Source: Candidatus Equadaptatus faecalis | GTDB lineage: Bacteria; Synergistota; Synergistia; Synergistales; Synergistaceae | Reading direction: 5' to 3' | Length of the DNA: 64,000 nt | Assembly: GCA_018065065.1 (NCBI GenBank) | Contig: JAGHTZ010000023.1 | Location: 2,552 to 66,551, forward strand | Part shown: piece after piece, positions 1-29,583 of the stretch | How the letters are laid out: each line of letters starts with the position of its first letter | How positions within the stretch are numbered: position 1 is the stretch's first letter | Made by a program: the position numbers and the translations under genes | The notes under the pieces: model-generated | What the model was told of the DNA's origin: nothing | Databases searched by the model: none | Seen by the model: the letters and a program-made list of their open reading frames with translations, nothing else

Positions 1-1
1 C

Positions 2-466
2 TTTAAGAGACAGATAGCCGAAGGGGGACCTGTTACCGTAACGGACAAGAACATCATCCGCTACTTCATGACCATACCGGAAGCAGTGTCACTCATACTT
101 CAGGCTTCGCACTACGCCGAAGGCGGGGAAATATTTGTCCTTGACATGGGAAAACCGGTGCGCATCGACGACATGGCGCGTGACCTCATAAAGCTCTCCG
201 GCTACACGCCCGACAAAGACATAAAAATCGTCTACACAGGGCTCCGCCCGGGCGAAAAACTCTTCGAAGAACTTCTCATGAGCGAAGAAGGAATGCGCAA
301 AACGCGCAACAACCTCATCTACGTCGGCAAACCGATACAATTTGACGAAGCAAAACTCGAAGCGCAGATTGCCGAACTTGATGCCGCAAGCGCCAACGAA
401 AGCGAAAGAATAAAACAGGCAGTCGCGGAAGTAGTTGATACGTATAAAATCAGCAATAAGCAGTAA
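2..466 (+). CDS. CapD/PglF/WbpM-family NDP-sugar 4,6-dehydratase, C-terminal part (5-prime end outside the window)
   Basis: The frame is open from base 2. The translation FKRQIAEGGPVTVTDKNIIRYFMTIPEAVSLILQA...GGEIFVLDMGKPVRIDDMARDLIKLSG matches the conserved C-terminal region of CapD-type polysaccharide biosynthesis proteins. Confidence 0.8.
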   Translation, partial: FKRQIAEGGPVTVTDKNIIRYFMTIPEAVSLILQASHYAEGGEIFVLDMGKPVRIDDMARDLIKLSGYTPDKDIKIVYTGLRPGEKLFEELLMSEEGMRKTRNNLIYVGKPIQFDEAKLEAQIAELDAASANESERIKQAVAEVVDTYKISNKQ

Positions 467-505
467 GCTATAAGCTGCAAGCGAAAAGCAAAGTGCAAAG
501 TACAA
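451..505 (+). repeat. Heptanucleotide NNNAAGC tandem repeat, site A
   Basis: AATAAGC AGTAAGC TATAAGC TGCAAGC GAAAAGC AAAGTGC AAAGTAC overlaps the stop codon of the CapD-like gene. The same family occurs at 32598-32792, 42711-42822 and 58146-58198. Confidence 0.7.
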
Positions 506-550
506 TTATTATTCATTCTGCATTATGCATTGATTTAAATTGAAGAGGGA

Positions 551-1798
551 ATGAAAATGTTTAAGGGAACGAAAATTCAGCCGTTTGAAAAGAAAGTATG
601 GCTCTCAAGCCCCACAATGCACGGGGAAGAGATTAAATACGTAACGGAAGCGTACGAAACAAACTGGATGTCAACGGTCGGCGAAAACATCAACGAGGTC
701 GAGCGCCTTGCCTGCGAATACACAGGCGCAAAATACGCCGTAGGGCTTTCTGCGGGAACGGCAAGCCTTCACCTCTCAATGAGGCTTGCAGGGGAAAAAG
801 CGTACGGCAAGCCTGCTGCCGGACACGGCGCGCTTGAAGGAAAACGCGTATTCTGCTCCGACATGACCTTTGCCGCAACGGTCAACCCCGTTGCTTACGA
901 AGGCGGAATACCCGTGTTCATAGACACAGAGCGCGACTCATGGAACATGGATCCTCAGGCGCTTGAACGCGCGTTTGAAATATATCCGGAAGTAAAAATA
1001 GTTGTCATTGCGCATTTATACGGCACGCCGGGCAAAATAGGCGAACTGAAAAAAATAATCGATGCTCACGGCGCGATACTCGTTGAAGACGCTGCTGAAT
1101 CTCTTGGTGCCACGTACAAAGGAAAACAGACCGGAACCTTCGGCGAATACAACACCATATCGTTCAACGGCAACAAAATCATAACAGGTTCTTCCGGCGG
1201 CTGCTTCCTGACGAACGACAAAGAAGCGGTGGACAAAGTCCGCAAATGGTCAACACAGGCGAGAGAAAACGCTCCGTGGTATCAGCACGAGGAGCTCGGC
1301 TGCAATTACAGAATGAGCAACGTTATAGCCGGAGTTGTGCGCGGACAATTCCCGCACCTTAACGAACACATAGCGCAGAAAAAGGCGATATACGAACGCT
1401 ACAAGGAAGGGCTGAAAAATCTCCCTGTTGAAATGAACCCGGTACCTGAAAACTGTGTGCCGAACTACTGGCTTTCATGTCTGCTCATAAAGCCGGAAGC
1501 AATGTGCAGACAGACACGCGGGGAAACGGACGTATGCTTCGTGCCTGAAAGCGGAAAAAGCTGCCCGCATGAAATACTTGACGCAATCAGCGGCATAAAC
1601 GCCGAAGGGCGTCCGATATGGAAACCCATGCACATGCAGCCTGTGTACAAAACACATCCGTTTGTCATGCGCAGCGGAGCAGCGGAAAGCGCAGGGGAAG
1701 ACATATTCAGCCGCGGACTCTGCATGCCAAGCGACAACAAAATGACGGAAGAACAGCAGGAAAAAATCATTGAAGTAATCAAAAAATGTTTTGATTGA
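551..1798 (+). CDS. DegT/DnrJ/EryC1/StrS-family PLP-dependent sugar aminotransferase (PglE/WbpE-like)
   Basis: 415-aa ORF with typical DegT features: LSAGTASLHLSM, VEDAAESLGA and SFNGNKIITGSSGG (PLP lysine region). ATG 557 has better RBS spacing than ATG 551. Confidence 0.85.
   Translation: MKMFKGTKIQPFEKKVWLSSPTMHGEEIKYVTEAYETNWMSTVGENINEVERLACEYTGAKYAVGLSAGTASLHLSMRLAGEKAYGKPAAGHGALEGKRVFCSDMTFAATVNPVAYEGGIPVFIDTERDSWNMDPQALERAFEIYPEVKIVVIAHLYGTPGKIGELKKIIDAHGAILVEDAAESLGATYKGKQTGTFGEYNTISFNGNKIITGSSGGCFLTNDKEAVDKVRKWSTQARENAPWYQHEELGCNYRMSNVIAGVVRGQFPHLNEHIAQKKAIYERYKEGLKNLPVEMNPVPENCVPNYWLSCLLIKPEAMCRQTRGETDVCFVPESGKSCPHEILDAISGINAEGRPIWKPMHMQPVYKTHPFVMRSGAAESAGEDIFSRGLCMPSDNKMTEEQQEKIIEVIKKCFD
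1745..1798. repeat. Left copy of a 54-bp imperfect direct repeat (functional 3-prime end of the aminotransferase gene)
   Basis: ACGGAAGAACAGCAGGAAAAAATCATTGAAGTAATCAAAAAATGTTTTGATTGA is compared with 8720-8773. 31 of the first 32 nt are identical and overall identity is about 81 percent. Both copies encode TEEQQ.KIIE.IK.CF. followed by a stop. Confidence 0.8.
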
Positions 1799-1852
1799 CA
1801 AATTGAATGATAGCAGGTGTGTAATATTATACTGCATGAACGCGATAAAACT

Positions 1853-1861
1853 TGTTATAAT
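1853..1861 (+). promoter_or_regulatory. Putative extended -10 promoter element (TGTTATAAT) for the first island operon
   Basis: A TGnTATAAT match lies 45 bp upstream of the ATPase start codon. The -35 element is weak. Confidence 0.35.
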
Positions 1862-1905
1862 AGTCTCGTGTTACAGATGATTCTTATCGACAGGAGTGAG
1901 ACTGT

Positions 1906-2931
1906 ATGTTTAAGAGCGTAAGCGTGAAAAATTTTGGAGCGTTAAAAGAGGTATCTTGGAGAAGATTAAGCAGCATAAATCTTGTTTTGGGAGAAAACGG
2001 TACAGGCAAGAGTTTTTTGCTGAAAGCTATGTATGTTGCTTTACGCACGTGTGAGGCATATAAACGCGGCAATGACAAAAGAGATTTTGGCGACATACTG
2101 TCAGATAAGTTGTATTGGACATTTCAGGCAGAGAAGATTGGGGATATAGCAACAAAGAGTAAAGATAAAAAAGACAGCCTGAATTTTTGCGCAGCGATAG
2201 ACGAAAGTACAAAGTTATCATATTCTTTTGGCCGTGATACAGAAAAACAAATTAAAAACATTTCGGGCATTCCGTCTGTAAATAGATCTGCAGAATCGAT
2301 TTTTCTCCCTGCAAAAGAAGTTGTTTCTTTACAAAAAGTCATAATAAAATCACGGGAACAGGACAGACTGTTCGGTTTTGACAACACCTATTATGATTTA
2401 GCCCGTGCTTTGAATAATCCGACGATGCGCGGGCGCTCGTCTGACAGAGTAGCAGATGCCAGGAGCCACCTTGAGGATATGCTTGGCGGCAGACTTGAAA
2501 AAGATGAGGATACACAGAGTTGGTATTTTAAGGATCAAAACGCCAAAAAGTTTTTAATCGGTGTTGTTGCCGAAGGAGTAAAAAAAGTTTCGATTTTAGA
2601 TATATTGCTTGGTAACAGATATTTATCTCCTGAATCTGTCGTTTTTATAGACGAGCCAGAGTCAGCGTTGCACCCTGCGGCGATTTCAAAGTTTATGGAT
2701 ATAATTTACGAGTTGTCGCTCACCGGCATGCAGTTTATTATGGCAACACATTCCTATTTTGTCCTTAAAAAACTTTATCTGCTGGCGACAGAACATCAGT
2801 GCAGTATTCCGGTTCTTTCTTTAGGCAGAGAAAGACATGATACGTATGATTTGAAAGACAGTTTGCCGGATAATCCAATTGTAGCTGAGTCAATCAAATT
2901 GTACGAACAAGAGGTCGACCTTGTGCTATGA
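1906..2931 (+). CDS. ABC-type (AAA15/AAA21-like) ATPase, candidate defence component
   Basis: Walker A is GENGTGKS, Walker B/D-loop is VVFIDEPESALHP and the H-loop is MATHS. An AGGAG-like RBS precedes the ATG. The region is AT-rich. Confidence 0.75.
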   Translation: MFKSVSVKNFGALKEVSWRRLSSINLVLGENGTGKSFLLKAMYVALRTCEAYKRGNDKRDFGDILSDKLYWTFQAEKIGDIATKSKDKKDSLNFCAAIDESTKLSYSFGRDTEKQIKNISGIPSVNRSAESIFLPAKEVVSLQKVIIKSREQDRLFGFDNTYYDLARALNNPTMRGRSSDRVADARSHLEDMLGGRLEKDEDTQSWYFKDQNAKKFLIGVVAEGVKKVSILDILLGNRYLSPESVVFIDEPESALHPAAISKFMDIIYELSLTGMQFIMATHSYFVLKKLYLLATEHQCSIPVLSLGRERHDTYDLKDSLPDNPIVAESIKLYEQEVDLVL

Positions 2932-3431
2932 GAGGTGTGCGTACAATAGAAGAATCGGGAATGCATTTTATATGCCCTGAAAATGGTAGTTTCGAAATTG
3001 AAAAATATACACAAACGTCAAAAGTTCACCACGTGCGCTCGGTAGAATTTTTGTTGAAGCGCAATGGCGCAGTGTTGTTTATTGAAGCCAAAAGCAGTAT
3101 TCCCGGAACAGACGGAGAAGGGTTTCAGGAATATATTGCTGCAGTGACAGAAAAATTTATACATTCCCTTGGAATGTACGTTGCTGTATTGTTGAAGAGA
3201 AGAAAAGTTACAGGAGAATGGGAATTACCGGATAGTTTAAAGCAAGTTGATTTAAGCACTGTTCAGTGCAAATTTGTCCTTGTTGTGAATGGCGCCAGTC
3301 CTAATATATTGTTAAATGTTGAAGATGCTCTTCGGACATCAATGTATCCTGTACAGCAAATTGCAAAGTTTGAAAGCCATCCGATAGCAATAGATGACGT
3401 GAAAGCAAGGCAGAAAGGTTTGATTGTATAA
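2928..3431 (+). CDS. Small hypothetical protein with a PD-(D/E)xK-like motif (possible minimal nuclease)
   Basis: Its start overlaps the ATPase stop (ATGA). The segment VEFLLKRNGAVLFIEAKSS has the acidic residue plus ExK spacing typical of restriction-endonuclease-fold and DUF4263-like cores. The call rests on this motif only. Confidence 0.45.
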   Translation: MRGVRTIEESGMHFICPENGSFEIEKYTQTSKVHHVRSVEFLLKRNGAVLFIEAKSSIPGTDGEGFQEYIAAVTEKFIHSLGMYVAVLLKRRKVTGEWELPDSLKQVDLSTVQCKFVLVVNGASPNILLNVEDALRTSMYPVQQIAKFESHPIAIDDVKARQKGLIV

Positions 3432-3491
3432 TATAAGCGAGTGTCTGCATATACAGATACAAAAATATGACGATGAGAAGTGAAATGAAGA

Positions 3492-4874
3492 ATGTCTATA
3501 AATGAATTAAAACCAACCACGGAGAATATCGCGGAGTGCTTTGTAAAAGATATAGTTAGAAGACAGGAAGCAGTCCTTGGTTTTGTTGATGTGTTGGATG
3601 CTACGTCAAAGCACTCAATTGCAGTAGACGGACGATGGGGAAGCGGCAAAACCTTCTTTGTTAAGCAGACGAAATTGTTGCTTGACATTTGCAACAAACA
3701 GGTAAGCAAAGTTGAGTTGTCGGAAAATATCTTGTTTGACCTTAATGGAGTAATATATAAGCATTGCCACCCCAATCCAGGTATAGTTGACGCAGAATGG
3801 AAGCCAATGTTTTCAGTATATTACGACGCTTGGACAAATGATAACGATATAGATCCTCTGATATCAATAATTTATTGCATAGCAAAAGGCATCAATGAAG
3901 AAAACTGTCTGAAAACAACTCAGGTTAATTATCTCAGATCTGCTGCCGATATAATTAAATGCGTTCAAGGGTGGAGTGTCGGTGAACTGCTCAATGTTTT
4001 TAATACAGAAGACCCCTTGTCTGCAATAAAAAGTCAAAAAAGTTTAGAGGAACGAATTAATGAATTTTTGGGAATAATTACAAATGAACGGGGCGAGAAG
4101 ATAGTTATATTTATAGATGAACTGGACAGATGTAAACCAAGTTTTGCCGTGAAACTGCTTGAAAGAGTGAAACACTATTTTGATAATGAAAGAGTAATTT
4201 TTGTTTTTTCCACAAATCTTGAGCAACTTCAGCATACAGTCAAAAAATTCTACGGCATTGATTTTGATGCAACTCGCTATTTAAACAGATTTTTTGATTA
4301 TGTTTTTGAATTGCCGGAAGCAGATATGGAAAACTATCTTTATACACTGCAAAGAGAAGTAAAGTATGATTATGATTTTATCGGCAGTGAGATAATGAAG
4401 ATGTATAATTTGACATTGAGAGATGTTGCTCAATATTACAGAATGTTAAAATTTGCTTTTGATCCTGCTCAATTAAAAACGGGATTAAAACCGTGGGCAG
4501 AAAAGAAAACTGTGCGTATGGCTGTTTCGGTCTTTTTGCCGATATTGTTTGTTCTGCGTATGACGGATAATAGTGCATATAATGACTTTATAAACGGCAA
4601 ATCTGCGGAGTATTTTGAAAAGCTTATCTGCTCTAAAAAACTTAAATCACGTGCGCGTACAATATTTTGTGCAGGCAGTATGGGAAATGACAGCGATGAG
4701 GATTTAAAAAATATTGTTCGTGATGTGTATTCGGCAGTGTTTATTGAGAGATATGAAGATATAAAAGAACAGTATCTGACTAACTCTTTTGTGTTTACGC
4801 AAAATACAAAAGAATGTATATTTGATATTATCTCAGGACTGTCTCTTGATAAGAATATTGCGTTATTGGAATAG
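3492..4874 (+). CDS. KAP-family P-loop NTPase
   Basis: It has the diagnostic DGRWGSGKTFF Walker A and the IVIFIDELDRC Walker B. A hydrophobic segment, VSVFLPILFVL, lies in the C-terminal half. Confidence 0.8.
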   Translation: MSINELKPTTENIAECFVKDIVRRQEAVLGFVDVLDATSKHSIAVDGRWGSGKTFFVKQTKLLLDICNKQVSKVELSENILFDLNGVIYKHCHPNPGIVDAEWKPMFSVYYDAWTNDNDIDPLISIIYCIAKGINEENCLKTTQVNYLRSAADIIKCVQGWSVGELLNVFNTEDPLSAIKSQKSLEERINEFLGIITNERGEKIVIFIDELDRCKPSFAVKLLERVKHYFDNERVIFVFSTNLEQLQHTVKKFYGIDFDATRYLNRFFDYVFELPEADMENYLYTLQREVKYDYDFIGSEIMKMYNLTLRDVAQYYRMLKFAFDPAQLKTGLKPWAEKKTVRMAVSVFLPILFVLRMTDNSAYNDFINGKSAEYFEKLICSKKLKSRARTIFCAGSMGNDSDEDLKNIVRDVYSAVFIERYEDIKEQYLTNSFVFTQNTKECIFDIISGLSLDKNIALLE

Positions 4875-5278
4875 AGCGTTCAAGCAAAGAGCCGCGTAGC
4901 AAACGAAATTTAATGTTATACAGGAAAAAAGAACATAAATGTTGTCGCGCGTAAGTTTTTATTTACGATACAATGGTTTTAATGCTATCATGGTATTGTG
5001 TTTGGGCATGGCTTTTTGTGTTACATGTCAGAAAAAGCGCAAATGCTCTGCCTGCTGTCAAACGACAAAATGACAGCGGAATAGTAGGAGAAGATTATTG
5101 AAAAAATCTTTAAAAAATAATAACCTTGGATAATAGATATACGGGACAATACTTTGAACTGTACGACGTAACAGATTTGTAAATGATAGAAGCTACCTAT
5201 TTGCTGAGTACGTTGTGGGATAAAAATGTTAATTGAATCTGTGGTCGTTAAAATAAGTAGGAGTGGAGGTCTGTTACT

Positions 5279-6907
5279 ATGGGAATAATAAAAGTAACTG
5301 AAATGCAGATTAATGAATTTAGAATTTTTAGAGATGTAAATATAAAGTTTGGTAAGATGATAACGGCAATTGCAGGTAGCAACGGAACTGGAAAGTCTAC
5401 GTTGCTAGCGTTGTTGGGTAACACGATGGAGTATAGACGGACTTCTTCAAAAACAACATATTTCAAACCTAAGCGTTATAGAACAGAGTTTAGTGAAATT
5501 ATCCATGGTTCCTTAACTTATGACAAACACGGTAGTAATTTGTTAAAAGTCAGTTTTGACGATGGCGACTATAGGATTTGTAGAACCACGTGGCAAACTG
5601 ATAAGGAAGCTCCTGGCGGTAAGCGTTTTAGAGTTATACCAGAAGTAAAGATTAATACTGAGACAGGGGCTAAAAAAAGCTCAAAGAAGAAAGAGATTCC
5701 TGTTGTATATTTAGGACTCTCAAGACTATATCCTATAGGAGAATCTCAAAAAGTTACGCCACATAGTATTACTTTGTCAGATATTGACCAAGAGGGTATC
5801 GAATGGATAAAGTCGAAAGCCAAAGATATACTGTACATGTTCAATAACGATAACATAAATGGGGTTACTAAAATAGACCTTGGTGATGTTGAGCATAAGA
5901 CAGGAATTGGATTTAACACGGAAAATTATGACTATATTACTAATTCAGCTGGGCAGGATAATGTTGGACAGATCCTTTCCGCTCTATGGAAGTTTAAGGC
6001 GCTACGAGATGAGCTGATGGAAGAATACCACGGCGGGGTTTTGCTGATAGATGAGATAGATGCAACATTACACCCTGCATCGCAGAAAAAATTGTTAAGT
6101 GTGTTGATAGATGCCGCAAGGCACTTTGAGATACAAGTTATTTTTACTGTGCATAGTCTTTCGGTAATAGAAGATTTGATTGAAAAATCACAACATGTCA
6201 ATGATAACATAGTGTTAAATTATCTGACAAACGCTAATGGAATGTTTGAAGTTTTCTTACAACCAACAATATCTCAGATAAAAAATGAACTTAATGCATC
6301 AATTACTCCATATGGACGTCAAATTAAATTATATACTGAGGATGCTGAAGCAAGATGGATGTTGAAAAAACTCTTATCTAAATTTGGGACGGAGTATACA
6401 AGTAGCGTTCGCATAGTTGACGATATGTGTTGCGGCAATACATTCCTCATATCGCTATATAAAGTTGATAAACCAGTATTTTCAGATGTTATTACAGTTT
6501 TGGATGGAGATAGTGTAGATGATTTGCGTAAAGCAGGGATAGATAACGATAACCCTCATTTTATGGTCTTGCCTATCGAAGGTAAGAGTCCTGAGAGTGT
6601 GTTGTTAGATTTTTTGATTGACGAACTTGAGCCCGAGTCAGATTTCTTTGCACAAAGTTGTGTAAGAGAAACTGGTTTTATAAAACAGAATCTTCGTGCT
6701 ATAAGAGATGACTTAGAAAGAGGTATTTATCCTAAGAGGGATATACTAAAAAAGTGGTTTAACAATACGAAGTCGATAATGGAAGATAGCCATCTATTCG
6801 ATTTTTGGTATGAGGCACATCAAAACGATGTTGTTAGATTCAAAGAAAAATTCACAAAATGTTTTAATATGTTGGCAAAAAATCTTAGAGTTAGAGTGAT
6901 AAAGTGA
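5279..6907 (+). CDS. OLD-like fused ABC ATPase plus putative TOPRIM/DUF4435-like domain
   Basis: Walker A is GSNGTGKST, the signature-like motif is SAGQDNV, Walker B is VLLIDEIDATLHP and the H-loop is TVHS. The C-terminal part has IKLYTEDAEARW (a conserved Glu) and ITVLDGDS (a DxD motif) as in TOPRIM. A strong RBS, AGGAGTGGAGG, precedes the start. Confidence 0.7.
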   Translation: MGIIKVTEMQINEFRIFRDVNIKFGKMITAIAGSNGTGKSTLLALLGNTMEYRRTSSKTTYFKPKRYRTEFSEIIHGSLTYDKHGSNLLKVSFDDGDYRICRTTWQTDKEAPGGKRFRVIPEVKINTETGAKKSSKKKEIPVVYLGLSRLYPIGESQKVTPHSITLSDIDQEGIEWIKSKAKDILYMFNNDNINGVTKIDLGDVEHKTGIGFNTENYDYITNSAGQDNVGQILSALWKFKALRDELMEEYHGGVLLIDEIDATLHPASQKKLLSVLIDAARHFEIQVIFTVHSLSVIEDLIEKSQHVNDNIVLNYLTNANGMFEVFLQPTISQIKNELNASITPYGRQIKLYTEDAEARWMLKKLLSKFGTEYTSSVRIVDDMCCGNTFLISLYKVDKPVFSDVITVLDGDSVDDLRKAGIDNDNPHFMVLPIEGKSPESVLLDFLIDELEPESDFFAQSCVRETGFIKQNLRAIRDDLERGIYPKRDILKKWFNNTKSIMEDSHLFDFWYEAHQNDVVRFKEKFTKCFNMLAKNLRVRVIK

Positions 6908-7812
6908 TGCACTATACGCCGCTGCGCTATCCCGGAGGAAAAGCAAAATTATACAAATTCTTCTGTGGACTAATTGAAAATAATTTTACTGATGCACCAA
7001 ACTATGCAGAGCCTTATGCTGGTGGTGCAGGTTTGGCGTTGGCGTTACTCATGACGGGAAAAGTCAAGAAGATATATATAAATGACATTGACAGAGCTAT
7101 ATATGCTTTTTGGTATACACTACTGAATGAAACGGACAGGCTTATTGATAAAATAAAGACAGTAAATGTATCTCTTGAAGAATGGGACAAGCAACACCTT
7201 ATACAGGGAAATAAAGAAACTGCAGACATTTTCGATTTAGGTTTTTCAACATTTTTCCTAAATCGTACAAACAGGTCAGGTATCATAAAGGGTGGAATGA
7301 TTGGTGGCAGAGGGCAAAATGGTGTGTGGAAATTGGACGCACGGTTTAACAAGACAAATTTAATAAGCCGTATCAAGGCTATTGCTGACTATAGGCTGTA
7401 TATTAATATCAGTAACATAGATGCGTTGCAATTTTTGCGTAATATGGGCAATACTGGCACAATGAACACGTTATACTATTTAGACCCGCCATATATAAAG
7501 AAGGCCACTGGATTATATTCACACTCTTATGGTGATGCAGACCATATAAAAGTTGCAAAAACAGTAAAAACATTAGACGCTAAGTGGATTGTTTCTTATG
7601 ATGCAGAGAATATTGTTGAGAAACTTTATTCAGGGTATCGCCAAATCACATATGACTTGGGGTATTCAGCAAGAACTGCGCGAACAGGAAGAGAATTTAT
7701 GGCATTTTCAGTGGACTTGAAGATACCCGAAGAGATACAACAGGCAAAGAAAAATATCTCTATCCCTAATATGAGCAATATAATTTTCTGCAACTTAAAT
7801 AATATGATATAA
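6904..7812 (+). CDS. Dam-family (D12 class) N6-adenine DNA methyltransferase
   Basis: Motifs present are LRYPGGKAKL, EPYAGGAGLAL (AdoMet binding) and YYLDPPY (catalytic DPPY). ATG 6907 overlaps the TGA of the upstream ATPase (TGATG). Confidence 0.85.
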   Translation: MMHYTPLRYPGGKAKLYKFFCGLIENNFTDAPNYAEPYAGGAGLALALLMTGKVKKIYINDIDRAIYAFWYTLLNETDRLIDKIKTVNVSLEEWDKQHLIQGNKETADIFDLGFSTFFLNRTNRSGIIKGGMIGGRGQNGVWKLDARFNKTNLISRIKAIADYRLYINISNIDALQFLRNMGNTGTMNTLYYLDPPYIKKATGLYSHSYGDADHIKVAKTVKTLDAKWIVSYDAENIVEKLYSGYRQITYDLGYSARTARTGREFMAFSVDLKIPEEIQQAKKNISIPNMSNIIFCNLNNMI

Positions 7813-7850
7813 AGCGGGTTGAAATTTAAATTTAGTGAAGGTATGATAAG

Positions 7851-8708
7851 ATGATACAAAAACTTGATTTGTTTGCAAAAATGTATGAAGAAGCAATTAA
7901 TAAAGGAGATGTTAACATTGCCAGAATACACGAAGAATTGTTCAGTAGAGAACTCGAACATATTTTGTTAAATTACAACCCTAATGATATAGTTGAAAGT
8001 TTTATAGATATTATAAAACCTAAAACATTTCCTACTATTTCTGTTAAAAAAAATGAGATATTTTATCGTGCACGCAGGGGGCACGATACAGTAAGTGGCG
8101 CTATTGATGATTGTGATGGGACTTTTGTAATGCCACACCATGCGCACGATATTGAAAAAGTACCGCCTATGTTAGCACCAGGTGGGCGATTTAATAGGTC
8201 TGGTACATCCTTTTTATATATAGCATCTGATGTTCATACGGCTATAGCTGAAGTGCATGCACAGGTTGGCGAAATTTGTAGCATTGGAACATTTTGCTGT
8301 AAAAAAGATATAACACTTATTAATTTATCTGATAAAGCGAAATCACCCAAAATAAACTTGTGGTGTAATGTTATATTACAACCTATATATCCAGAGAAAT
8401 TGCATATATATAAACTGACACAATTTGTTACAGATGTATTTGTCCAGTCCGGAATGAGAGGATTTTATTTTAACAGTGTACAGACAGATACTGGAAAGAA
8501 TGTGGTTTGTTTTGCTAACGATGTTTTCGAGTTAGAAAAATACAGTGAAAAACTGTATTACATAAAAAAGGTTAGTTATGCTATTGAAGAATATAAAGAT
8601 TGGACTGAAAAAATAGACGTGAAATTGCTTAATTCGTATAATAGTGAAGAAGATGAAGAAAGAGATAGAAAAATAGATTATTTAGCAACTTTGGTAAAAA
8701 ACAAATGA
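7851..8708 (+). CDS. RES-domain protein (NAD+-targeting toxin family) with an N-terminal extension of about 70 aa
   Basis: The R-E-S signature is present: FYRARRG, GGRFNRSGTSFLYIASDVHTAIAEV and GFYFNSVQTDTGKNVVCF. No Xre-type antitoxin ORF lies upstream. Confidence 0.75.
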   Translation: MIQKLDLFAKMYEEAINKGDVNIARIHEELFSRELEHILLNYNPNDIVESFIDIIKPKTFPTISVKKNEIFYRARRGHDTVSGAIDDCDGTFVMPHHAHDIEKVPPMLAPGGRFNRSGTSFLYIASDVHTAIAEVHAQVGEICSIGTFCCKKDITLINLSDKAKSPKINLWCNVILQPIYPEKLHIYKLTQFVTDVFVQSGMRGFYFNSVQTDTGKNVVCFANDVFELEKYSEKLYYIKKVSYAIEEYKDWTEKIDVKLLNSYNSEEDEERDRKIDYLATLVKNK

Positions 8709-8773
8709 TATTGGCAGAAACGGAAGAACAGCAGAAAAAAATCATTGAAACTATAAAAGCCTGTTTTGAATAA
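8705..8773 (+). pseudogene. Remnant 3-prime end of an aminotransferase gene (right copy of the direct repeat, 8720-8773)
   Basis: It translates as MILAETEEQQKKIIETIKACFE*, compared with ...NKMTEEQQEKIIEVIKKCFD* at 1745-1798. Its TAA overlaps the ATG of the sugar transferase (TAATG), as expected for an ancestral coupled junction. Confidence 0.7.
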
Positions 8774-9486
8774 TGGAAAGAAAGATTACTTTTTACGAAA
8801 AATATGTGAAGCGGCCGATGGACTTCTGCCTTGCATTAGGTGCAATCATAGGCTTAAGCCCAGTTCTGCTTATCACCGCGTATCTGGTGAAAAAGAAACT
8901 CGGCTCTCCCGTATTGTTCAAACAGCCGAGACCGGGCAGAAACGAAAAAATATTCAACCTTTACAAATTCCGCACCATGACGGACGAACGCGATGAAAAC
9001 GGCAATCTTCTGCCCGACGACGTCAGACTTACGGACTTTGGAAAAAAACTTCGCGCCACCTCGCTTGACGAGCTGCCGGAGCTTATAAACATACTAAAAG
9101 GCGACATGGCAGTTGTAGGTCCCCGTCCCCTGCTTGTCAGGGATATGCTCTTTATGACTGACGGACAGAGAAAACGTCACAGTGTGCGTCCGGGGCTTTC
9201 GGGGCTTGCGCAGGTAAACGGAAGAAACAACGTTACTTGGGAAGAAAAACTTGCATGGGACTTGAAATATCTTAAAGGCATCACCTTTTGCGGTGACTGG
9301 AAAATAATTGGCGTCACTTTCAAAAAGGCGTTTGCGAGAGAAGGCATAAACACGGACGGAATGGACACGGCGGAAGACCTTGGCGACTGCCTGCTTCGTG
9401 AGGGTAAAATTACGCAGCAGGAATACGATGAAAAAATGTCTGTTGCCAAAATGATGTTAATGCAATTTGAGAACGGGAGAGTTTAA
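8773..9486 (+). CDS. Undecaprenyl-phosphate sugar phosphotransferase (small PglC/WbaP C-terminal-type bacterial sugar transferase)
   Basis: An N-terminal re-entrant helix is followed by PVLFKQPRPGRNEKIFNLYKFRTM and LDELPELINILKGDMAVVGPRP. Confidence 0.85.
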   Translation: MERKITFYEKYVKRPMDFCLALGAIIGLSPVLLITAYLVKKKLGSPVLFKQPRPGRNEKIFNLYKFRTMTDERDENGNLLPDDVRLTDFGKKLRATSLDELPELINILKGDMAVVGPRPLLVRDMLFMTDGQRKRHSVRPGLSGLAQVNGRNNVTWEEKLAWDLKYLKGITFCGDWKIIGVTFKKAFAREGINTDGMDTAEDLGDCLLREGKITQQEYDEKMSVAKMMLMQFENGRV

Positions 9487-10276
9487 TTTGAAGGATCTCG
9501 TTTCCGTAATCATGCCGTCATACAATACGGCAGAATATATCGGAGAGTCTATAAAGTCAGTTTTTGCCCAGACGTATGAAAACTGGGAACTGATAATTGT
9601 TGACGATTGTTCGACAGACAGCACGGACGGAATTGTTGCCGGATTTAACAGCGACAAGATACGCTATTTTAAAAACGAAAAAAACAGCGGTGCGGCGGTT
9701 TCAAGAAACAAAGCCTTGCGTGAGGCAAAGGGGCGTTGGATTGCGTTTTTGGACAGCGATGACATTTGGGAGCCGCTGAAACTGGAAAAACAGATCAGGT
9801 TTATGGAAGAAAACGGATATGCCTGTTCGTTTACTGATTACCGGATATGCTTAAACGGAAAATGGATGCCATATATCAATACAGCCCCAAATATTGTTGG
9901 TAAGGTAAGATTGTATAACTATTGCTACTTTTCAACAATTACAGTTATGTATGACAGAGAAAAAATAGGGTTAATTCAAATAGCTGATTTACGTAAGAAT
10001 AACGATTACGCCATGTGGCTGCAAATAGTCAGTAAATCCAAATTTTACAGATTACCTGAATGTTTGTCGTATTATATCAAACATAATGACTCTGTCTCAG
10101 GCGGAAGTAAATACAAGTTAATAAAATGGCATTACATATTGTTTAGAAAAGGCCTCAATAAAGGTAAAGTATGGTCTGCATTGCTTACTGTTAATAATTT
10201 ATTTTGGGGTGTTATAAAAAAGATTACTTACAAACAAACCACGGAGAGTAAAATCCCAGAATTATTCAATAGATAG
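9467..10276 (+). CDS. Family 2 glycosyltransferase
   Basis: VSVIMPSYNTAEYIGESIKSVFAQTY and IIVDDCSTD with a later LDSDD motif are typical of GT2. Confidence 0.8.
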   Translation: MRTGEFNLKDLVSVIMPSYNTAEYIGESIKSVFAQTYENWELIIVDDCSTDSTDGIVAGFNSDKIRYFKNEKNSGAAVSRNKALREAKGRWIAFLDSDDIWEPLKLEKQIRFMEENGYACSFTDYRICLNGKWMPYINTAPNIVGKVRLYNYCYFSTITVMYDREKIGLIQIADLRKNNDYAMWLQIVSKSKFYRLPECLSYYIKHNDSVSGGSKYKLIKWHYILFRKGLNKGKVWSALLTVNNLFWGVIKKITYKQTTESKIPELFNR

Positions 10277-14481: not shown

Positions 14482-15375
14482 ATGAAGTACAACGTTGGAG
14501 AAATTTATCCGCAGTTTGATTTTGAAATTACCGGAGCGTCATATACAGGCTGCCCTGTCGATAACACAGTAATGTTTGTGTCAAAGAAAGTCGGGCATCT
14601 TGTAGAAAATCTCAAAGGACACAAAAACTGTCTTGTGTTTGCCGAAAACGGGATAGAAATTTCTGAAGAAATACGCAGAAACAACGGTTTTGTTTTCACG
14701 GATAACCCTTCACTGGAATATGCGAAGTTTGCAAACATTCTTGCGGAAAGAGAATTTGAAGCCGAGAGAGCAAAAAAATACGAACTTGTTAACGGTTATT
14801 ACGTCGGCGAAAACGTTGAAATAGGCGAAAATGCATACATAGAGCCTGGATGCGTTATAGGTCACGGCGTTAAAATAGGAAACAGCGCGAGGATATTTGC
14901 AGGGGCAATTATCAAGAATGCTGTAATCGGGGATAATTTTTATTGCAACGAGAATGCCGTTATAGGTACGCAGAGTTTTACAATGGCAGATGACGAACAG
15001 GGAAATAAGTTACGTATTCCTGCTCTCGGCAAGGTGCTTATCGGCAATAACGTTGAAATCGGTGTCGGCGACAACATTTCGCGAGGAACCTGCGGAAACA
15101 CTATTTTGGAAGATTTTGTCAAGCTTGACGTTCTTGTTCACGTCGGGCACGACGCGCATCTTCACAAAAACGTTGAAATAACGGCAGGCTGTATAATCGG
15201 AGGTTTTGCCGACCTTGCCGAAAAAGCCTATATGGGCATAAATTCGGCGGTGAAAAATCGTAAAAATGTTGGTAAAAATGCTATGGCATGGGTGCGGTTG
15301 TTATTCGTGACGTTGAGGACAATAAAACGGTTGTCGGCAACCCGGCGAAGGAACTTATCAAGAAATGACGAATGA
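14482..15375 (+). CDS. LpxD-like hexapeptide acyl/acetyltransferase with a probable frameshift in the last ~30 codons
   Basis: Hexapeptide repeats run through the ORF. After ...VGKNAMA the reading frame gives WVRLLFVTLRT. The adjacent frame reads MGAVVIRDVEDNKTVVGNPAKELIKK* (stop at 15366-15368), which is the canonical family C-terminus. Confidence 0.65.
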   Translation: MKYNVGEIYPQFDFEITGASYTGCPVDNTVMFVSKKVGHLVENLKGHKNCLVFAENGIEISEEIRRNNGFVFTDNPSLEYAKFANILAEREFEAERAKKYELVNGYYVGENVEIGENAYIEPGCVIGHGVKIGNSARIFAGAIIKNAVIGDNFYCNENAVIGTQSFTMADDEQGNKLRIPALGKVLIGNNVEIGVGDNISRGTCGNTILEDFVKLDVLVHVGHDAHLHKNVEITAGCIIGGFADLAEKAYMGINSAVKNRKNVGKNAMAWVRLLFVTLRTIKRLSATRRRNLSRNDE

Positions 15376-15405
15376 CTAGTTACGAGTGACTAATGAGGAC
15401 GAAAA

Positions 15406-16074
15406 GTGTCACAAAACATTATGTGGTTAACGAGGAGAGGATTCATTTTGAACAAAAAACTTTACGATAACATATATATGATATTTGTGATATATGTTAT
15501 AGCGTGCGTGAGTATTATTGCGTTTATTGTTTGGGGTTATGCGAATATTTATTATACACCTTGGGATACATATTTTCGAAGTAGTATAGGTGGGATATTA
15601 GGTGGTATAGGTGCATTACTTGCTGTCTATATTACGGTAAATAGTAATATCTATATACAAGAGCGAAATCGCAAAGAAGCAGATTTAAGGCTGAAAGAGG
15701 AAATTCAAAAAAGAGAATTGGGTGAAAAGAAAATATTAGTGGAAAAGCTTCGTAGAGATATATGTGAATATATTGTACACATAGCTGATTATCATTACGA
15801 TCAAAACGTTGTTGAGAATATTCATAATATCAGTGATACTACAAGAAATAATAAACTTGTAGCAAATGCATTGTATTTTAGCTTATTAAGCACTTTTGAT
15901 GATTTAGAAAATGCGGCAAATCTTGTAAGAATAATGAAAAAAATACACAATAATGCTGGACGAATGATAAATGGGGATATGAACTGGATTGATGCCGAGT
16001 CAATTAACTTTATGGAGGCGTTTGCAGATTTTTCGAAATGTTTTGTTGCAGATAATATAAAAACATGGAGTTGA
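15406..16074 (+). CDS. Hypothetical membrane protein: 2 predicted TM helices plus a charged/coiled helical C-terminal domain
   Basis: The hydrophobic helices are IYMIFVIYVIACVSIIAFIVWGY and IGGILGGIGALLAVYITV, followed by a KE-rich segment. The likely start is TTG 15448, after the RBS GAGGAGAGG. The gene is very AT-rich. Confidence 0.55.
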   Translation: MSQNIMWLTRRGFILNKKLYDNIYMIFVIYVIACVSIIAFIVWGYANIYYTPWDTYFRSSIGGILGGIGALLAVYITVNSNIYIQERNRKEADLRLKEEIQKRELGEKKILVEKLRRDICEYIVHIADYHYDQNVVENIHNISDTTRNNKLVANALYFSLLSTFDDLENAANLVRIMKKIHNNAGRMINGDMNWIDAESINFMEAFADFSKCFVADNIKTWS

Positions 16075-16103
16075 TATTATTAGTTTAAGAAACAAATGTA
16101 TGG

Positions 16104-17189
16104 TTGCCTAATATGAGAAAAATTTATTGTACTGACAAATATAAAGCTTATCAAAAGAATCGACAAAAAGATGAGTTATTGTATAGCAGGAGAAAGCATA
16201 TAGCTAATAATAAGTACAATCAGTATATTGAAAAGCAAAGATTAGCTGCAAAAATTAAATATAAAGCATCAAAAGTTAAATGTGATGATGAGAAACAAAA
16301 CCGTGTTAAACTAGATGCACCCGCAAATTTTTCATTAAAGGAAAATACTGCGGAGGTCTTGTTGTTCCTTAGTGGTCTGATTCATTATATAAATACGCGG
16401 CAACCAATTTATCTTAACTTAAAAGACGTTAATAACGTAGCAGTGGATACCTTATTAGCCATAGTTGCAATTTTTGATGCCAGGAATATTAGAGATGTAA
16501 GAGGTAACTATCCGGATGACAGAAATGCATACAGGTTAATCAAGGATTATGGTTTTTTTGATGCAATACATGCAAAATCTATATTAGATGTACATTCTAT
16601 GGATAGAAATATATTTTCAATTAAGTCTGGGACGAAGGCTGATTCAGGTATTGTAGATGAGATAGTGGATTTTGTTAATCTTGACAATATAACATACATG
16701 ATTGTAAAAAAAATGATATATGCAACGCTATTGGAAATTATTGGTAATGCCAACGAGCATGCATATAGTAGTGGTAATATATTTGGTTTGAAAAAAAATT
16801 GGTATTTGTGTGTGCATAAAACAGATTCATCGATTTTATTTACTGTTTTGGATAATGGGTTTGGCATAGTTAGAACCATCAAAAGAAAAACATCCGAAAG
16901 GGCAAAAGAAATATTTAGCATTGTTAGATATTTTGACAAGATTCAAGATACTGATTTGCTCAAAGCAGCGTTTGTAGAGTCTGGTCGCAGTGAAAGTGGA
17001 CATAGATACAGAGGCAAAGGACTCCCTACAATTTATAGGAGAAGTATTGTTAATGGTCAATTTACTGATTTTACGGTTATATCAAATAAGGCAATGTTAA
17101 ACATTGCAATGGATGGAACAATTATTCCAACAAACTTGACTGAGAGTTTTAATGGGACATTATTCTCATGGAAAATAATACTAAATTGA
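16104..17189 (+). CDS. GHKL-superfamily (HATPase_c-like) ATP-binding protein
   Basis: The N-box is LLEIIGNANEHAY, G1 is VLDNGFGI, G2 is YRGKGLPTI and the C-terminal motif is NGTLFSWKI. A basic N-terminal region of about 200 aa precedes these motifs. ATG 16113 is an alternative start. Confidence 0.65.
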   Translation: MPNMRKIYCTDKYKAYQKNRQKDELLYSRRKHIANNKYNQYIEKQRLAAKIKYKASKVKCDDEKQNRVKLDAPANFSLKENTAEVLLFLSGLIHYINTRQPIYLNLKDVNNVAVDTLLAIVAIFDARNIRDVRGNYPDDRNAYRLIKDYGFFDAIHAKSILDVHSMDRNIFSIKSGTKADSGIVDEIVDFVNLDNITYMIVKKMIYATLLEIIGNANEHAYSSGNIFGLKKNWYLCVHKTDSSILFTVLDNGFGIVRTIKRKTSERAKEIFSIVRYFDKIQDTDLLKAAFVESGRSESGHRYRGKGLPTIYRRSIVNGQFTDFTVISNKAMLNIAMDGTIIPTNLTESFNGTLFSWKIILN

Positions 17190-17194
17190 AATAG

Positions 17195-17530
17195 GTGATA
17201 ACAATGGTTGAAACAAAAATGATTAACATTGCTAAAGATTATACGGTAACACCTGGCTTTAGACTTAAATCACAGGGGGAGTACTCTGGAGAGGATTTCA
17301 GAATTAAGTTTTTGGAACCGATTTTTGAAAAAAATCCAGATTCTTTGGTAGTAGTGAATTTAGATGGAGTAAAAGGGTATGCGATATCATTTTTAGAAGA
17401 AGCATTTGGTGGCTTAGCTAGAAAATTTACTGAGATTGATTTTAATGAGCATATTAAAATAATATCTACTGAGGAACCGTATCTTGTTGATGATATCAGA
17501 GGATATATTCAAAATGCGAAAAATTGCTAA
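17195..17530 (+). CDS. STAS-like DUF4325-family protein
   Basis: GEYSGEDFRIKFLEPIF...LVVVNLDGVKGYAISFLEEAFGGL matches the pattern I recall for DUF4325 (an SFldEaFg motif). The gene lies 5 bp after the GHKL gene. Confidence 0.6.
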   Translation: MITMVETKMINIAKDYTVTPGFRLKSQGEYSGEDFRIKFLEPIFEKNPDSLVVVNLDGVKGYAISFLEEAFGGLARKFTEIDFNEHIKIISTEEPYLVDDIRGYIQNAKNC

Positions 17531-18074
17531 AACATACATACGCATAGGTTTACCTTTATTAACTATAACTATTTGTGCGGCTATATCATGGCGCAATTTG
17601 GAGGGATGTCGTTTTTGGGATATCACCTGTTCCACAATATTGAATATAATCTTTTTAGGTGGTTTTGTGGTATGGTTTACGCATATTAATAATATGTCTG
17701 TGCGTAGAATAGAGTTAATGTGTCAAAATATTGAACACCTTAAAACTAAGTATTTACAGATTCAGGACTTGATGTTAAAGGAAAGTTGCGATAGCAATAT
17801 TAACAGAACAACAACACAAAATGCTGTATACTTATTAAAAAGTGCGTATATATATAAACAATGTCTTTTTGCGTTGATTAGCAAAGAATCAAGTAGTGAT
17901 ATTATTGTACAATATATGGACGATGTTGAGAAACATCATACAGGATTGAGAAATTACATTGACATATATGAGGACATTAAAGATGATAAACGGAGAGAAA
18001 TTAATAACAAAATTGTTAAACATATTGTAAATATAATTAATGATGTTGATTTTATAAAGTTAAATATGTTCTAA
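17484..18074 (+). CDS. Hypothetical membrane protein: 2 predicted TM helices plus a helical C-terminal domain
   Basis: The TM helices are IGLPLLTITICAAISW and ILNIIFLGGFVVWFTHI. The likely start is ATG 17514, which overlaps the end of the DUF4325 gene. The architecture resembles the 15406-16074 product. Confidence 0.5.
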   Translation: MLMISEDIFKMRKIAKTYIRIGLPLLTITICAAISWRNLEGCRFWDITCSTILNIIFLGGFVVWFTHINNMSVRRIELMCQNIEHLKTKYLQIQDLMLKESCDSNINRTTTQNAVYLLKSAYIYKQCLFALISKESSSDIIVQYMDDVEKHHTGLRNYIDIYEDIKDDKRREINNKIVKHIVNIINDVDFIKLNMF

Positions 18075-18101
18075 AATACTTACGCATAATTTTTAAATGA
18101 G

Positions 18102-19184
18102 GTGTTTCAAATGAAATACGCATTAATCGGCTGCGGAAGAATAGCAAGAAATCATATCAAAGCGGCGGTGGAAAACGGACTGGAAATAGCTGCTGTCTGT
18201 GATGTTATTTCGGAGAAGATGGACGCAATTCTGGAAAACGCCGGACTTGATAAAAATTGCGCCAAGCATTATATAGACTATAAGCAGTTGATTGCCGAAA
18301 ACGATATAGAGCTTGCAAGCATTGCAACAGAAAGCGGAATCCATGCTGAAATAGCAATCTACTGCATTGAGCACGGAATAAACCTGATTATAGAAAAACC
18401 GATGGCGATGAACGTGCGCGACGCGGACAAGATTATAGAACTTGCGGAAAAACATCACGTCAAGGTTTCAGCCTGCCATCAGAACCGTTTCAACGTGGCG
18501 ATTCAAAAAACAAGAGCAGCTCTTGAAGCCGGACGCTTCGGAAGGTTGTCGCACGGCGGAATTTACGTCCGCTGGAACCGTGACGGCGGATATTACGACC
18601 AGGCAAAGTGGCGCGGAACATGGGCGCAGGACGGCGGCTGTCTTATGAACCAGTGCATACACGGCATTGATCTGCTTCGCTGGATGTTCGGCGACGAGGT
18701 TGTTTCCGTCTACGGTCAGACGCGTCAGCAGTTCCATGACTATCTTGAAGCGGAAGACATCGGAACAGCGGTTGTTACCTTCAAAAACGGTACAGTTGCC
18801 ACAATAGAGGGAACTGTCAACGTTTATCCGAAAAACCTCGAAGAAACGCTATACATCTTCGGCGAAAAAGGTACTGTAAAAATCGGCGGCACTTCAACGA
18901 ACAACATTGACGTTTGGGACTTTGCCGACGAAACGGAAGCGGACGCAGCCAACAAAGGGCTGAAAGAAGCAACGAGCAACGTGTACGGCAACGGACACAT
19001 CTCGCTCTTTGCGGACGTCATCGACGCCATAAAAAACGACCGCAAGCCTTACGTTGACGCCGTTGCTGGACGCAACGCGCTTGAGGTGGTGCTTGCGATA
19101 TACAAATCGCAGAAAACAGGTCAGCCTGTAAAATTCCCTGTTGATTTTGCAAGCACGGAAATGAAAACGGAGGATTTGAAATAG
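18102..19184 (+). CDS. Gfo/Idh/MocA-family oxidoreductase (WbpB-like UDP-GlcNAcA 3-dehydrogenase)
   Basis: YALIGCGRIARNH Rossmann N-terminus and an EKPMA motif are present. The likely start is ATG 18111. It completes the WbpA/B/D/E/I set. Confidence 0.8.
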   Translation: MFQMKYALIGCGRIARNHIKAAVENGLEIAAVCDVISEKMDAILENAGLDKNCAKHYIDYKQLIAENDIELASIATESGIHAEIAIYCIEHGINLIIEKPMAMNVRDADKIIELAEKHHVKVSACHQNRFNVAIQKTRAALEAGRFGRLSHGGIYVRWNRDGGYYDQAKWRGTWAQDGGCLMNQCIHGIDLLRWMFGDEVVSVYGQTRQQFHDYLEAEDIGTAVVTFKNGTVATIEGTVNVYPKNLEETLYIFGEKGTVKIGGTSTNNIDVWDFADETEADAANKGLKEATSNVYGNGHISLFADVIDAIKNDRKPYVDAVAGRNALEVVLAIYKSQKTGQPVKFPVDFASTEMKTEDLK

Positions 19185-26281: not shown

Positions 26282-27148
26282 ATGAAGGGTATTATTCTTG
26301 CAGGCGGTAAAGGAACAAGACTTTATCCGATGACGAGGGCTGTATCAAAACAGCTGCTGCCTATTTATGACAAGCCGCTTATTTATTATCCCCTTTCTGT
26401 TCTGATGCTTGCGGGTATTCGCGAAGTGCTTATTATTTCCACCCCTGATGACATTGACGGTTACAAAAAACTGCTTGGCGATGGCACAGAACTTGGAATG
26501 AATTTTGAATATAAAATTCAGGAAACACCGCGCGGCCTTGCAGACGCTTTCATTCTCGGCGAAGAATTTATAGGCGACAACAACGTCTGCCTTATTCTCG
26601 GCGACAATGTCTTTTTCGGTCAGGACATGACTAAGGTGCTTAAACAGGCTATGGAAAACAAAACGGGCGCAACAGTTTTCGGTTATCCTGTTAAAGACCC
26701 TCGCTCGTTCGGCGTTGTGGAATTCGACAAAGACCACAATGTTGTTTCCATTGAAGAAAAACCAAAGGAACCGAAAAGCAATTATGCTGTTCCCGGGCTG
26801 TATTTTTATGACAACAGAGTTATAGAAATCGCAAAGAACGTGAAACCGTCTGCACGCGGTGAAATAGAAATTACGGCTGTCAACAATGCCTATCTTGAAA
26901 TGGGAGAGCTCAAGGTTACGCTTCTTGGCAGGGGTATGGCATGGCTTGATACAGGCACTCCTGAAGGAATGCTGAAGGCTGCGGAATTTGTCGAAGCTGT
27001 TCAGGACAGGCAGGGCTTTTACGTTTCCTGCATAGAGGAAATTGCATGGCGCCGCGGTTTTATTTCAACGGAGCAGCTTGTTAAACTTGGCAGCAAACTA
27101 AAAATGACAGACTACGGCAAATATCTGCTGGCAATAGCGAAAGGATAA
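26282..27148 (+). CDS. rfbA: Glucose-1-phosphate thymidylyltransferase
   Basis: [53 protein letters not shown] is the canonical RmlA sequence. Confidence 0.95.
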
Positions 27149-28172: not shown

Positions 28173-28180
28173 TTTTGTCC

Positions 28181-28340: not shown

Positions 28341-28352
28341 TTTAGCGGCAGT

Positions 28353-28559: not shown

Positions 28560-28592
28560 TTGCCCTGACAATTTGCTGCTTATTAAACAGCG

Positions 28593-29423: not shown

Positions 29424-29583
29424 TACAGCCTCCTGTTCTGAAACACCTTGCGTTTCATGGTCTCTGCCCTTCATATTTCATATTTTAATTTTAGTCTTTT
29501 TCTCTGCATTCTACCATCTGCCTGTCGCAAGCAACCCACTATTTTCCGGAAACTTCTATATTCTACTTCCTACCCGCTGCCCT

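Follow-up and report, generated by a model that had tools for sequence, protein, structure and literature searches.

A 6,975-bp island of defence-type genes lies in the surface-polysaccharide (capsule/O-antigen-type) operon whose start opens a 64,000-nt stretch of DNA (hereafter the window; contig JAGHTZ010000023.1, positions 2,552–66,551) from the metagenome-assembled genome (MAG) of the uncultured gut Synergistaceae bacterium Candidatus Equadaptatus faecalis. The island separates a sugar aminotransferase gene (551–1798) from a PglC-like sugar transferase gene (8773–9486), and alignment to alleles that lack it reveals a precise addition in which no host sequence was lost and a 30-nt core was duplicated. 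We propose that the island, which carries no recombinase gene, was probably added by homology-driven recombination at the 3′ end of the aminotransferase gene, within its last ~50–100 nt. The incoming DNA brought its own aminotransferase 3′ end, leaving the target gene intact, and the resident end was pushed 7 kb downstream, still fused by TAATG to the PglC-like gene.

The primary evidence is a duplicated gene end. The last 54 nt of the aminotransferase gene (1745–1798) recur at 8720–8773, with the coordinates and both translations given in an earlier note made from the sequence alone, and 44 of the 54 positions are identical. That note counted 31 identities among the first 32 nt; we count 29, and the near-identical core is 30 nt long (1745–1774 and 8720–8749, 29/30 matching), the longest exact run common to the two copies being 15 nt. 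The significance of the repeat was evaluated by aligning the final 93 nt of the gene locally to the 10 kb that follow, with 300 dinucleotide-preserving shuffles as the null. The alignment score is 34, compared with a mean of 13.9 for the shuffles (standard deviation 1.4, maximum 19) and with scores of 14–19 when the same test is applied to 80 orthologous loci of other species. Because neither the shuffles nor the 80 loci exceed 19, the gene-end repeat is far beyond chance, including the similarity at 8720–8773 for which the earlier note had considered a chance origin.

The two copies differ in what follows the core. On the left, the core (1745–1774, plus strand, as are all features given below between positions 68 and 9486) is host-type sequence, and the gene then ends in a tail (tail A, 1775–1798, ...VIKKCFD-stop) that is unlike the tails at empty sites and is a replacement end that arrived with the island. 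On the right, allele alignment identifies 8720–8773 (tail C, TEEQQKKIIETIKACFE followed by a stop) as the displaced original end of the aminotransferase gene. It terminates in TAATG, which overlaps the ATG of the 237-aa Bac_transf gene, as had been noted before.

To establish polarity, empty-site contigs were traced via proteins in the 90%-identity clusters of the window aminotransferase, two of which are 95–96% identical to the window protein. Island-free alleles, which the earlier note expected in related genomes, are present in four metagenomic contigs (L082, L083, L088 and L089), where the aminotransferase–TAATG–transferase junction is uninterrupted and has a 1-nt stop/start overlap. The DNA of these contigs is 91–95% identical to the window flanks, they come from the same or a closely related species, and L088 runs on for 8 kb with the window's downstream genes at 95% DNA identity. 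The aminotransferases of L082 and L083 end in TEEQQKKIIETIKACFE, the peptide of the orphan at 8720–8773; tail C matches the working gene end of L083 at 54/54 nt and that of L082 at 53/54. At the left junction the window tracks the empty alleles to ...ATCATTGAA and then diverges, and at the right junction it rejoins them at ACGGAAGAACAGCAG (alignment A3), so that the breakpoints fall exactly at the core. In other species, the transferase gene lies no more than 100 nt from the aminotransferase gene in 42 of the 80 loci, and two of these species (L046 and L048) have an identical TTGAATAATGGAA junction. Since four empty-site contigs exist, the orphan's peptide is found at functional gene ends there, and the direct junction is common in other species, the direct, translationally coupled junction is ancestral, in agreement with the earlier note, and the island is derived.

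The opposite polarity, in which the island would be ancestral in the lineage and the empty alleles secondary deletions between the flanking repeats, deserves mention, since recombination of copy A with copy C would restore the exact empty-site sequence, and structure alone carries no polarity. However, an orphan end joined to the transferase gene by TAATG presupposes an older direct junction, which is the commonest arrangement in other species, identical TTGAATAATGGAA junctions included. Furthermore, the island is the most foreign segment of the window by composition, tail C is identical to a living allele, and four independent empty contigs contrast with a single occupied haplotype. Based on these observations, we consider secondary deletion very improbable.

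An assembly artefact was also evaluated, given that the source is a MAG and that repeats can mis-join contigs, in this case as a chimeric join at the shared repeat. Against this, a separately assembled Logan contig (L001) spans both junctions within 19,486 nt at 100% identity, copies A and C have no exact run in common beyond 15 nt, which is too short for k-mer collapse, and the six island genes are intact, with profile matches from end to end. We therefore give a chimeric join almost no credence.

The composition of the island agrees with a derived origin in that the GC content of 1799–8719 is 0.359, compared with 0.494 in the left flank and 0.449 in the right flank, and the island segment has the largest tetranucleotide distance among 115 sliding 6.9-kb windows. 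The GC values bear out the earlier statement that the six genes are more AT-rich than the flanks. A second AT-rich stretch of the same polysaccharide locus (~15–22 kb) ranks next in tetranucleotide distance, and for this reason low GC content alone is neither specific nor decisive. None of the six intervening genes is a sugar gene as judged by Pfam, also as previously noted, and all six are co-oriented with the operon.

The island is not a single unit. A third, decayed aminotransferase 3′ end (tail B, 5046–5126), found by the repeat search and by translation (LCLLSNDKMTAE-stop-stop-EKIIEKIFKK-stop-stop), sits between island genes three and four, in a spacer of 404 nt. Its alignment score of 27 is above that of every shuffle (maximum 19), a nucleotide profile of the gene tails recovers it with nhmmer (E 4e-6), and its two in-frame stops stem from two CAG-to-TAG changes. 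The nearest relative of tail B is the tail of another allele from this lineage, L085 (51/62 nt identical, 82%; 11/62 mismatches). The presence of tail B shows that the island is a stack of two cassettes, split by an older aminotransferase end: cassette 1 (1799–5045) with HEC-02A/B and a KAP NTPase, and cassette 2 (5127–8719) with an OLD-like ABC ATPase, a Dam-like methylase and a RES protein. The earlier description of one island bracketed by a duplicated gene end thus stands for the outer copies; it overlooked the remnant at 5046–5126, and with it the composite nature of the insert.

Contigs from another metagenome connect tail A to the cargo. The first island gene has one close relative only (P0129, 95%), on contigs L086 and L087, where the same leader and HEC-02A (94% DNA identity) follow a tail-A-type end (...IIEVIKKCFD-stop); the 107-nt leader has just two mismatches to that of the window. 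In L086, the HEC-02 pair carries a deletion and is followed by a SocA_Panacea protein and a 163-aa protein, and beyond these lies a second remnant of the aminotransferase gene, at least 88 nt long (ISFDRGLCLPSDNKMTAEEQETIIEVIKKCF). Since a tail of this type stands ahead of the HEC-02A homologue in both of these independent contigs, tail A moves together with cassette 1, and gene ends also bracket a second island with different cargo. The suggestion that the element supplies a replacement end is borne out by this linkage.

The ends of L086 were also inspected. Positions 1–30 and 2505–2534 are the same 30 nt (AATAATTGAAGTTATTAAAAAGTGCTTTGA), a length equal to k−1 for k=31, and the contig is broken at the very point of divergence between the host-type tail (TTTGAA) and tail A (TTTGAT). 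These ends fit either a repeat-bounded chromosomal segment or a 2.5-kb circle.

Searches for a donor returned distant relatives. Outside L086/L087, the closest HEC-02A relative is 57% identical, the closest relative of the 542-aa ATPase of cassette 2 is 48% identical, and a scan of IMG/VR for HEC-02A gave a single relative at 51%. Scans of JGI metagenomes for a donor gave no matches, exact-protein look-ups of the RES protein and HEC-02B returned only L001, and the 30-nt core was not found in IMG/VR viral contigs. A phage or plasmid origin by DNA similarity was rejected; there is no phage match, and the only plasmid matches are weak (~69%) and confined to the ATPase–methylase pair.

The states of the three remnants suggest an order of events. 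The arrangement tail A–cassette 1–tail B–cassette 2 would have been put together earlier, in related strains, and the whole stack would have entered the present haplotype in one recent event, because tail C equals a living allele while tail B is decayed. Under sequential integration of the cassettes into the haplotype seen today, tail C would have been without function for a longer time than tail B and would be expected to show more decay, whereas in fact tail B shows more.

Two routes for such an addition may be envisaged: (i) a circular or linear piece could recombine through the short, portable DegT-end homology in a Campbell-type single crossover, or (ii) a long DegT anchor could be combined with a short or illegitimate second join. 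Neither would require a dedicated integrase. Host homologous recombination is favoured by the varied starts of the remnants, the conserved gene end, the mosaic locus and a second insertion bracketed by 173-nt repeats. The left boundaries of the remnants correspond to gene positions ~1700 (L086), 1718 (tail B) and 1745 (tail C), and the gene end is extremely conserved across 88 aligned orthologue tails (DIFxRGLCLPSDNKMTxEQQ..II..I..CF). The locus is a recombination mosaic between strains, with 0-mismatch stretches beside ~35%-divergent ones, and because of this mosaicism strain polymorphism gave no placement of the crossover.

The C-terminal tails of the aminotransferase also vary among strains. 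In two further contigs from the same protein clusters (L084 and L085), the junction holds two or three genes, among them one ATP-grasp gene in L084 and two in L085, presumably for sugar modification; no orphan tail was found in either. In L085, an allele of the same 90%-identity cluster, the ATP-grasp genes follow the aminotransferase gene. The C-terminal residues thus apparently vary with downstream content among strains, which fits replacement-type recombination breakpoints in the gene end.

Similar anatomy could arise by site-specific recombination, which the earlier note had named beside recombination at the gene end. According to this alternative, the island is a decayed array resembling cis-mobilizable elements (CIMEs), built by tandem accretion after integration at an attachment site in the aminotransferase 3′ end, by a tyrosine or serine integrase since lost or acting in trans. 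In favour, CIMEs and tandem accretion have this very layout, with direct repeats of the target-gene 3′ end on either side and a third copy inside; no host sequence was lost in the insertion, which is precise; the remnants all begin in the terminal ~100 nt of the gene; and the core's single G/A mismatch is consistent with one crossover in its first 15 nt. The CIME-like reading fits the anatomy equally well as the homology-driven one. On the other hand, no integrase is found in the island, its flanks or L086, and no integrase-bearing element was seen at the site in the 80 orthologous loci or in alleles of the lineage. The core is absent from IMG/VR viral contigs, is purine-rich and, by eye, lacks dyad symmetry, the left boundaries of the remnants are non-uniform, and at the second bracketed insertion in the locus the duplicated sequence is an unrelated one of 173 nt. 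Taken together, we regard a CIME-like origin as possible, and on balance doubtful.

The absence of mobility genes extends beyond the island. No integrase, transposase or relaxase was detected among the six island genes, which were searched with Pfam, PADLOC and NCBIfam, nor in the upstream 8 kb or the other window open reading frames (ORFs) tested. The earlier remark that no integrase or transposase is present thus agrees with the domain content of the six island genes, and the intergenic spacers of the island, at most 404 nt, are too short for a hidden or decayed recombinase gene. Three further candidates were rejected. A transposon or insertion sequence is contradicted by the lack of a transposase and of terminal inverted repeats, and by a duplication that is a 30–54-nt homologous gene end and not a short one (2–14 bp). 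An island targeted to a tRNA or tmRNA gene finds no such gene in the window, and a structured RNA (retron, intron or riboswitch) in the island or its spacers finds no Rfam match at E ≤ 0.1 in positions 1–10000.

Several points weigh against homology-driven addition as we propose it. Neither an excised circle nor a donor genome nor an intermediate of recombination was seen, and on the right this host offers no more than 30 nt of homology, a short stretch for exchange by RecA. Moreover, all three remnants start in the last ~100 nt of a 1.25-kb gene, which would fit a preferred site and possibly an integrase acting in trans. The occupied allele is found only in the window and in L001, a 100%-identical contig that may derive from the same sample. 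Orphan ends occur only in the window/L001 and in L086, and in 0 of the 80 other-species loci (nhmmer profile of 88 tails), so that the generality of orphan-end islands is unproven. Finally, the defence function is predicted by homology alone; the KAP NTPase matches only a PADLOC candidate family (PDC-S20), and the RES protein has no defence-family match.

A broader version of homology-driven addition can be formulated, which we put forward tentatively and think rather unlikely to hold in full. In this version, the sugar aminotransferase 3′ end would serve as a portable docking sequence: recombinase-less defence cassettes with 50–100-nt stubs would move from the surface-polysaccharide locus of one strain to that of another by the host's homologous recombination and stack in order of arrival, in the manner of an integron-like array that has no integrase. 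The stub would keep the transferase gene coupled, and an insertion at 28.2–30.0 kb would be a product of the same process. If this were true, phage-receptor loci would be preferred landing pads for intracellular defence.

The insertion at 28.2–30.0 kb, at the distal end of the polysaccharide locus, is bracketed by 173-nt direct repeats of 93% identity (28173–28344 and 29826–29998), which begin directly after the stop codon of a gene for a 339-aa protein (27153–28172). The repeats flank ~1.5 kb with a KilA-N gene (28593–29474, minus strand; PADLOC candidate PDC-S22, E 2e-115), whose homologues occur on phages, phage satellites and plasmids. No recombinase is present in 28173–29998, and a look-up of the neighbouring 339-aa gene for an empty allele gave no record. 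Within the insertion, positions 29605–29739 (minus strand) hold an orphan fragment of 45 codons from the N-terminal part of an RfbA-like thymidylyltransferase, which is inverted relative to the start of the resident gene 26282–27148 and 76% identical to it at the DNA level. Because of this fragment, the KilA-N cassette is suggested to have come from another polysaccharide locus.

The first two genes of cassette 1 encode an apparently complete HEC-02 system. The HEC-02A ABC-type ATPase (1906–2931) matches PADLOC profile PDLC04214 over its full length (E 4.3e-141; coverage 1–339, 338-position profile) and also matches Pfam AAA_21 and AAA_15. HEC-02B, its NERD-like nuclease partner (2928–3431; PDLC04221, E 3.3e-39), overlaps it by 4 nt, so that both components are present, adjacent and overlapping. 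An HEC-02 homologue (ABC ATPase plus NERD-like nuclease) tested in E. coli gave protection, for which both genes are needed (Payne et al. 2024, bioRxiv 10.1101/2024.01.29.577857). The third gene encodes a KAP-family P-loop NTPase (3492–4874; PF07693, E 8e-31; PADLOC candidate PDC-S20, E 2.3e-50; phrog_8614, E 7e-44).

Cassette 2 starts with a 542-aa OLD/HEC-04-like ABC ATPase (5279–6907; PADLOC HEC-04, E 7e-23; ATPase-Toprim_I-B, E 3e-19). It matches phrog_3940 over its full length (E 1e-117) and, in the PDB, the ATPase heads of PtuA and OLD; its C-terminal part is probably TOPRIM-like. The end of this gene is overlapped by the start of that of a D12-class (Dam-like) N6-adenine DNA methyltransferase (6904–7812; PF02086, E 8e-21), which in PADLOC matches PD-Lambda-5_B (PDLC04018, E 1.1e-113) and MTase_II (E 4e-100). 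The ATPase–methylase pair is also found on a Clostridium butyricum megaplasmid, where it adjoins holin genes in what looks like a prophage accessory position. The partner in PD-lambda-5 has been reported to be of HEPN type (bioRxiv 10.1101/2024.10.26.620412). The gene beside the methylase here has no Pfam match to HEPN, and PD-Lambda-5_A is absent among the 25 of 134 PADLOC matches listed; the neighbour is an ABC ATPase/TOPRIM-like protein. As the HEPN-type partner is missing, cassette 2 was rejected as a PD-lambda-5 system.

The last island gene (7851–8708) encodes a RES-domain protein (PF08808, E 5e-13, residues 106–231) with an N-terminal region of ~100 aa of no assigned family, and the protein has no PADLOC, PHROG, NCBIfam or PDB match. 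A RES–Xre toxin–antitoxin pair was rejected, since the RES domain is present but the adjacent Xre-type partner is absent, no Xre/DUF2384-type antitoxin ORF being found beside 7851–8708. The matches to HEC-02A, HEC-02B, PDC-S20 and PD-Lambda-5_B support the label of defence-type island given in the earlier note: by sequence, the island genes appear to belong to known or candidate defence families, and the cargo may well protect against phage.

The cargo would be either co-transcribed with the operon or driven by promoters of its own. The leader of cassette 1 (1799–1905) contains an extended −10-like motif, TGTTATAAT (1853–1861), which may act as a promoter element, and AGGAG ahead of the ATG; no terminator-like sites were found between the island genes on the plus strand. 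At the distal end, a 22-codon mini-ORF (8705–8773; MILAETEEQQKKIIETIKACFE followed by a stop) spans tail C. Its ATG overlaps the stop codon of the RES gene (ATGA), its stop codon overlaps the ATG of the transferase gene (TAATG), and no Shine-Dalgarno-like motif is seen ahead of the latter. Given these overlapping stops and starts and the lack of an obvious Shine-Dalgarno sequence, a coupling relay from the RES gene through the mini-ORF to the transferase gene is plausible and would preserve translation of the transferase.

Upstream of the island, the host operon comprises the 3′ part of a CapD/PglF-like dehydratase gene (68–466; Polysacc_synt_2, PF02719, E 3.8e-28), which is cut by the window edge and is a full-length 654-aa gene in L001, and the target gene itself. 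The latter is intact and encodes a DegT/PglE/LegC-type aminotransferase of 415 aa (551–1798; PF01041, E 2e-76), identical to MBQ0054827.1 (‘Candidatus Equadaptatus faecalis’), which also matches the NCBIfam LegC family aminotransferase (E 1e-87, under the cut-off of that model). The first host gene downstream encodes the PglC-like small phosphoglycosyl transferase (8773–9486; PF02397, E 1e-55) and is followed by more sugar genes.

Further downstream, 15349–18110 is an AT-rich variable segment (GC ~0.32–0.36) with four genes that have no assigned function, one of which matches phrog_3364 and one of which is a DUF4325 protein according to the gene table of L001. The empty-site contig L088 has two different genes in place of this segment, for which no flanking duplication and no PADLOC match were found.

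Gene content at the aminotransferase–transferase junction also varies in other species. Large gaps were considered as islands and rejected, the gap in L049 consisting of sugar-modification genes. In a Butyrivibrio sp. MAG (L034, 11332–14006), the junction holds three non-sugar genes, encoding a zinc-ribbon protein, an uncharacterised protein and a STAND/AAA-like ATPase that weakly matches PDC-S01; there is no orphan gene end in this junction, which may represent an independent accessory insertion at the same place. A 614-aa aminotransferase homologue (P0002) on a 76-kb ENA contig has an internal tandem duplication of ~190 residues (AESLGATYKGVQTG...PLYRMN repeated), which may be genuine, having arisen within the gene, or may stem from the assembly.

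The island provides a well-resolved natural case of how defence genes can enter a chromosome without a mobility gene of their own: empty and occupied alleles are at hand, the breakpoints are exact, and the sequence of events is recorded in three nested remnants of the gene end. It comes from Synergistota, a phylum that has received little study. The island entered at a surface-polysaccharide operon, which itself helps to determine phage adsorption, and receptor variation and intracellular defence would thus be inherited and exchanged as one block, which matters for the prediction of gut phage host range. Short orphan gene ends could also be used as cheap markers for such islands in metagenomes.

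Among described systems, the closest patterns are C-terminal displacement arrays and CIME accretion, and an island with a duplicated 3′ gene end is in itself a known anatomy. Displacement and orphan arrays are known from Rhs and contact-dependent inhibition (CDI) as well as type VI secretion system (T6SS) effector–immunity loci (Kirchberger et al. 2017, PMC5361080; C-terminal displacement arrays also in Jackson et al. 2009, as cited there), and have been proposed to arise by homologous recombination, or by a homologous anchor combined with an illegitimate join (PMC5361080). As in these arrays, the incoming module combines a conserved 3′ replacement with new cargo (tail A replaces tail C), displaced ends with a conserved stub are kept downstream as orphans (tail B, tail C and the second tail of L086), and repetition yields an array that has no mobility genes. 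Unlike in these arrays, the swapped end is the conserved tail of a non-toxic aminotransferase and not the polymorphic tip of a toxin, the cargo consists of anti-phage systems as judged by homology and not of cognate immunity genes, and the orphans are just 54–92 nt long and non-functional.

CIMEs and tandem accretion have been described at gene 3′ ends, for example at fda or tRNA-Lys sites in streptococci (PMC7563491). The island shares with them the lack of integrase and transfer genes, the direct repeats of the target 3′ end, the tandem stack with an internal repeat copy, and putative phage-resistance cargo, which is frequent in CIMEs. It differs in that no related integrative and conjugative or integrative and mobilizable element (ICE/IME) and no integrase is known for the site, in that the repeat boundaries are not uniform, and in that the host is a Synergistaceae MAG and the target a polysaccharide-pathway gene within an operon.

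Finally, defence islands occupy chromosomal hotspots flanked by core genes in E. coli, Pseudomonas and Serratia (PMC9519451, PMC12629846, bioRxiv 10.1101/2024.01.28.577318). As in those hotspots, several unrelated candidate defence systems are clustered here, AT-rich and variably present at one fixed site between conserved genes; in contrast to them, the site lies inside a translationally coupled polysaccharide-operon junction, and duplicated gene ends record the order of events. The HEC-02 pair agrees with that of Payne et al. 2024 in having both genes adjacent and overlapping, with full-length profile matches, but sits in a polysaccharide operon instead of being embedded in an Hma system, and is known here by homology. 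What is less usual, compared with all of these, is the combination of a coupled junction in a phage-receptor-type operon, an element that has no recombinase gene, and nested remnants from which the order of events can be read.

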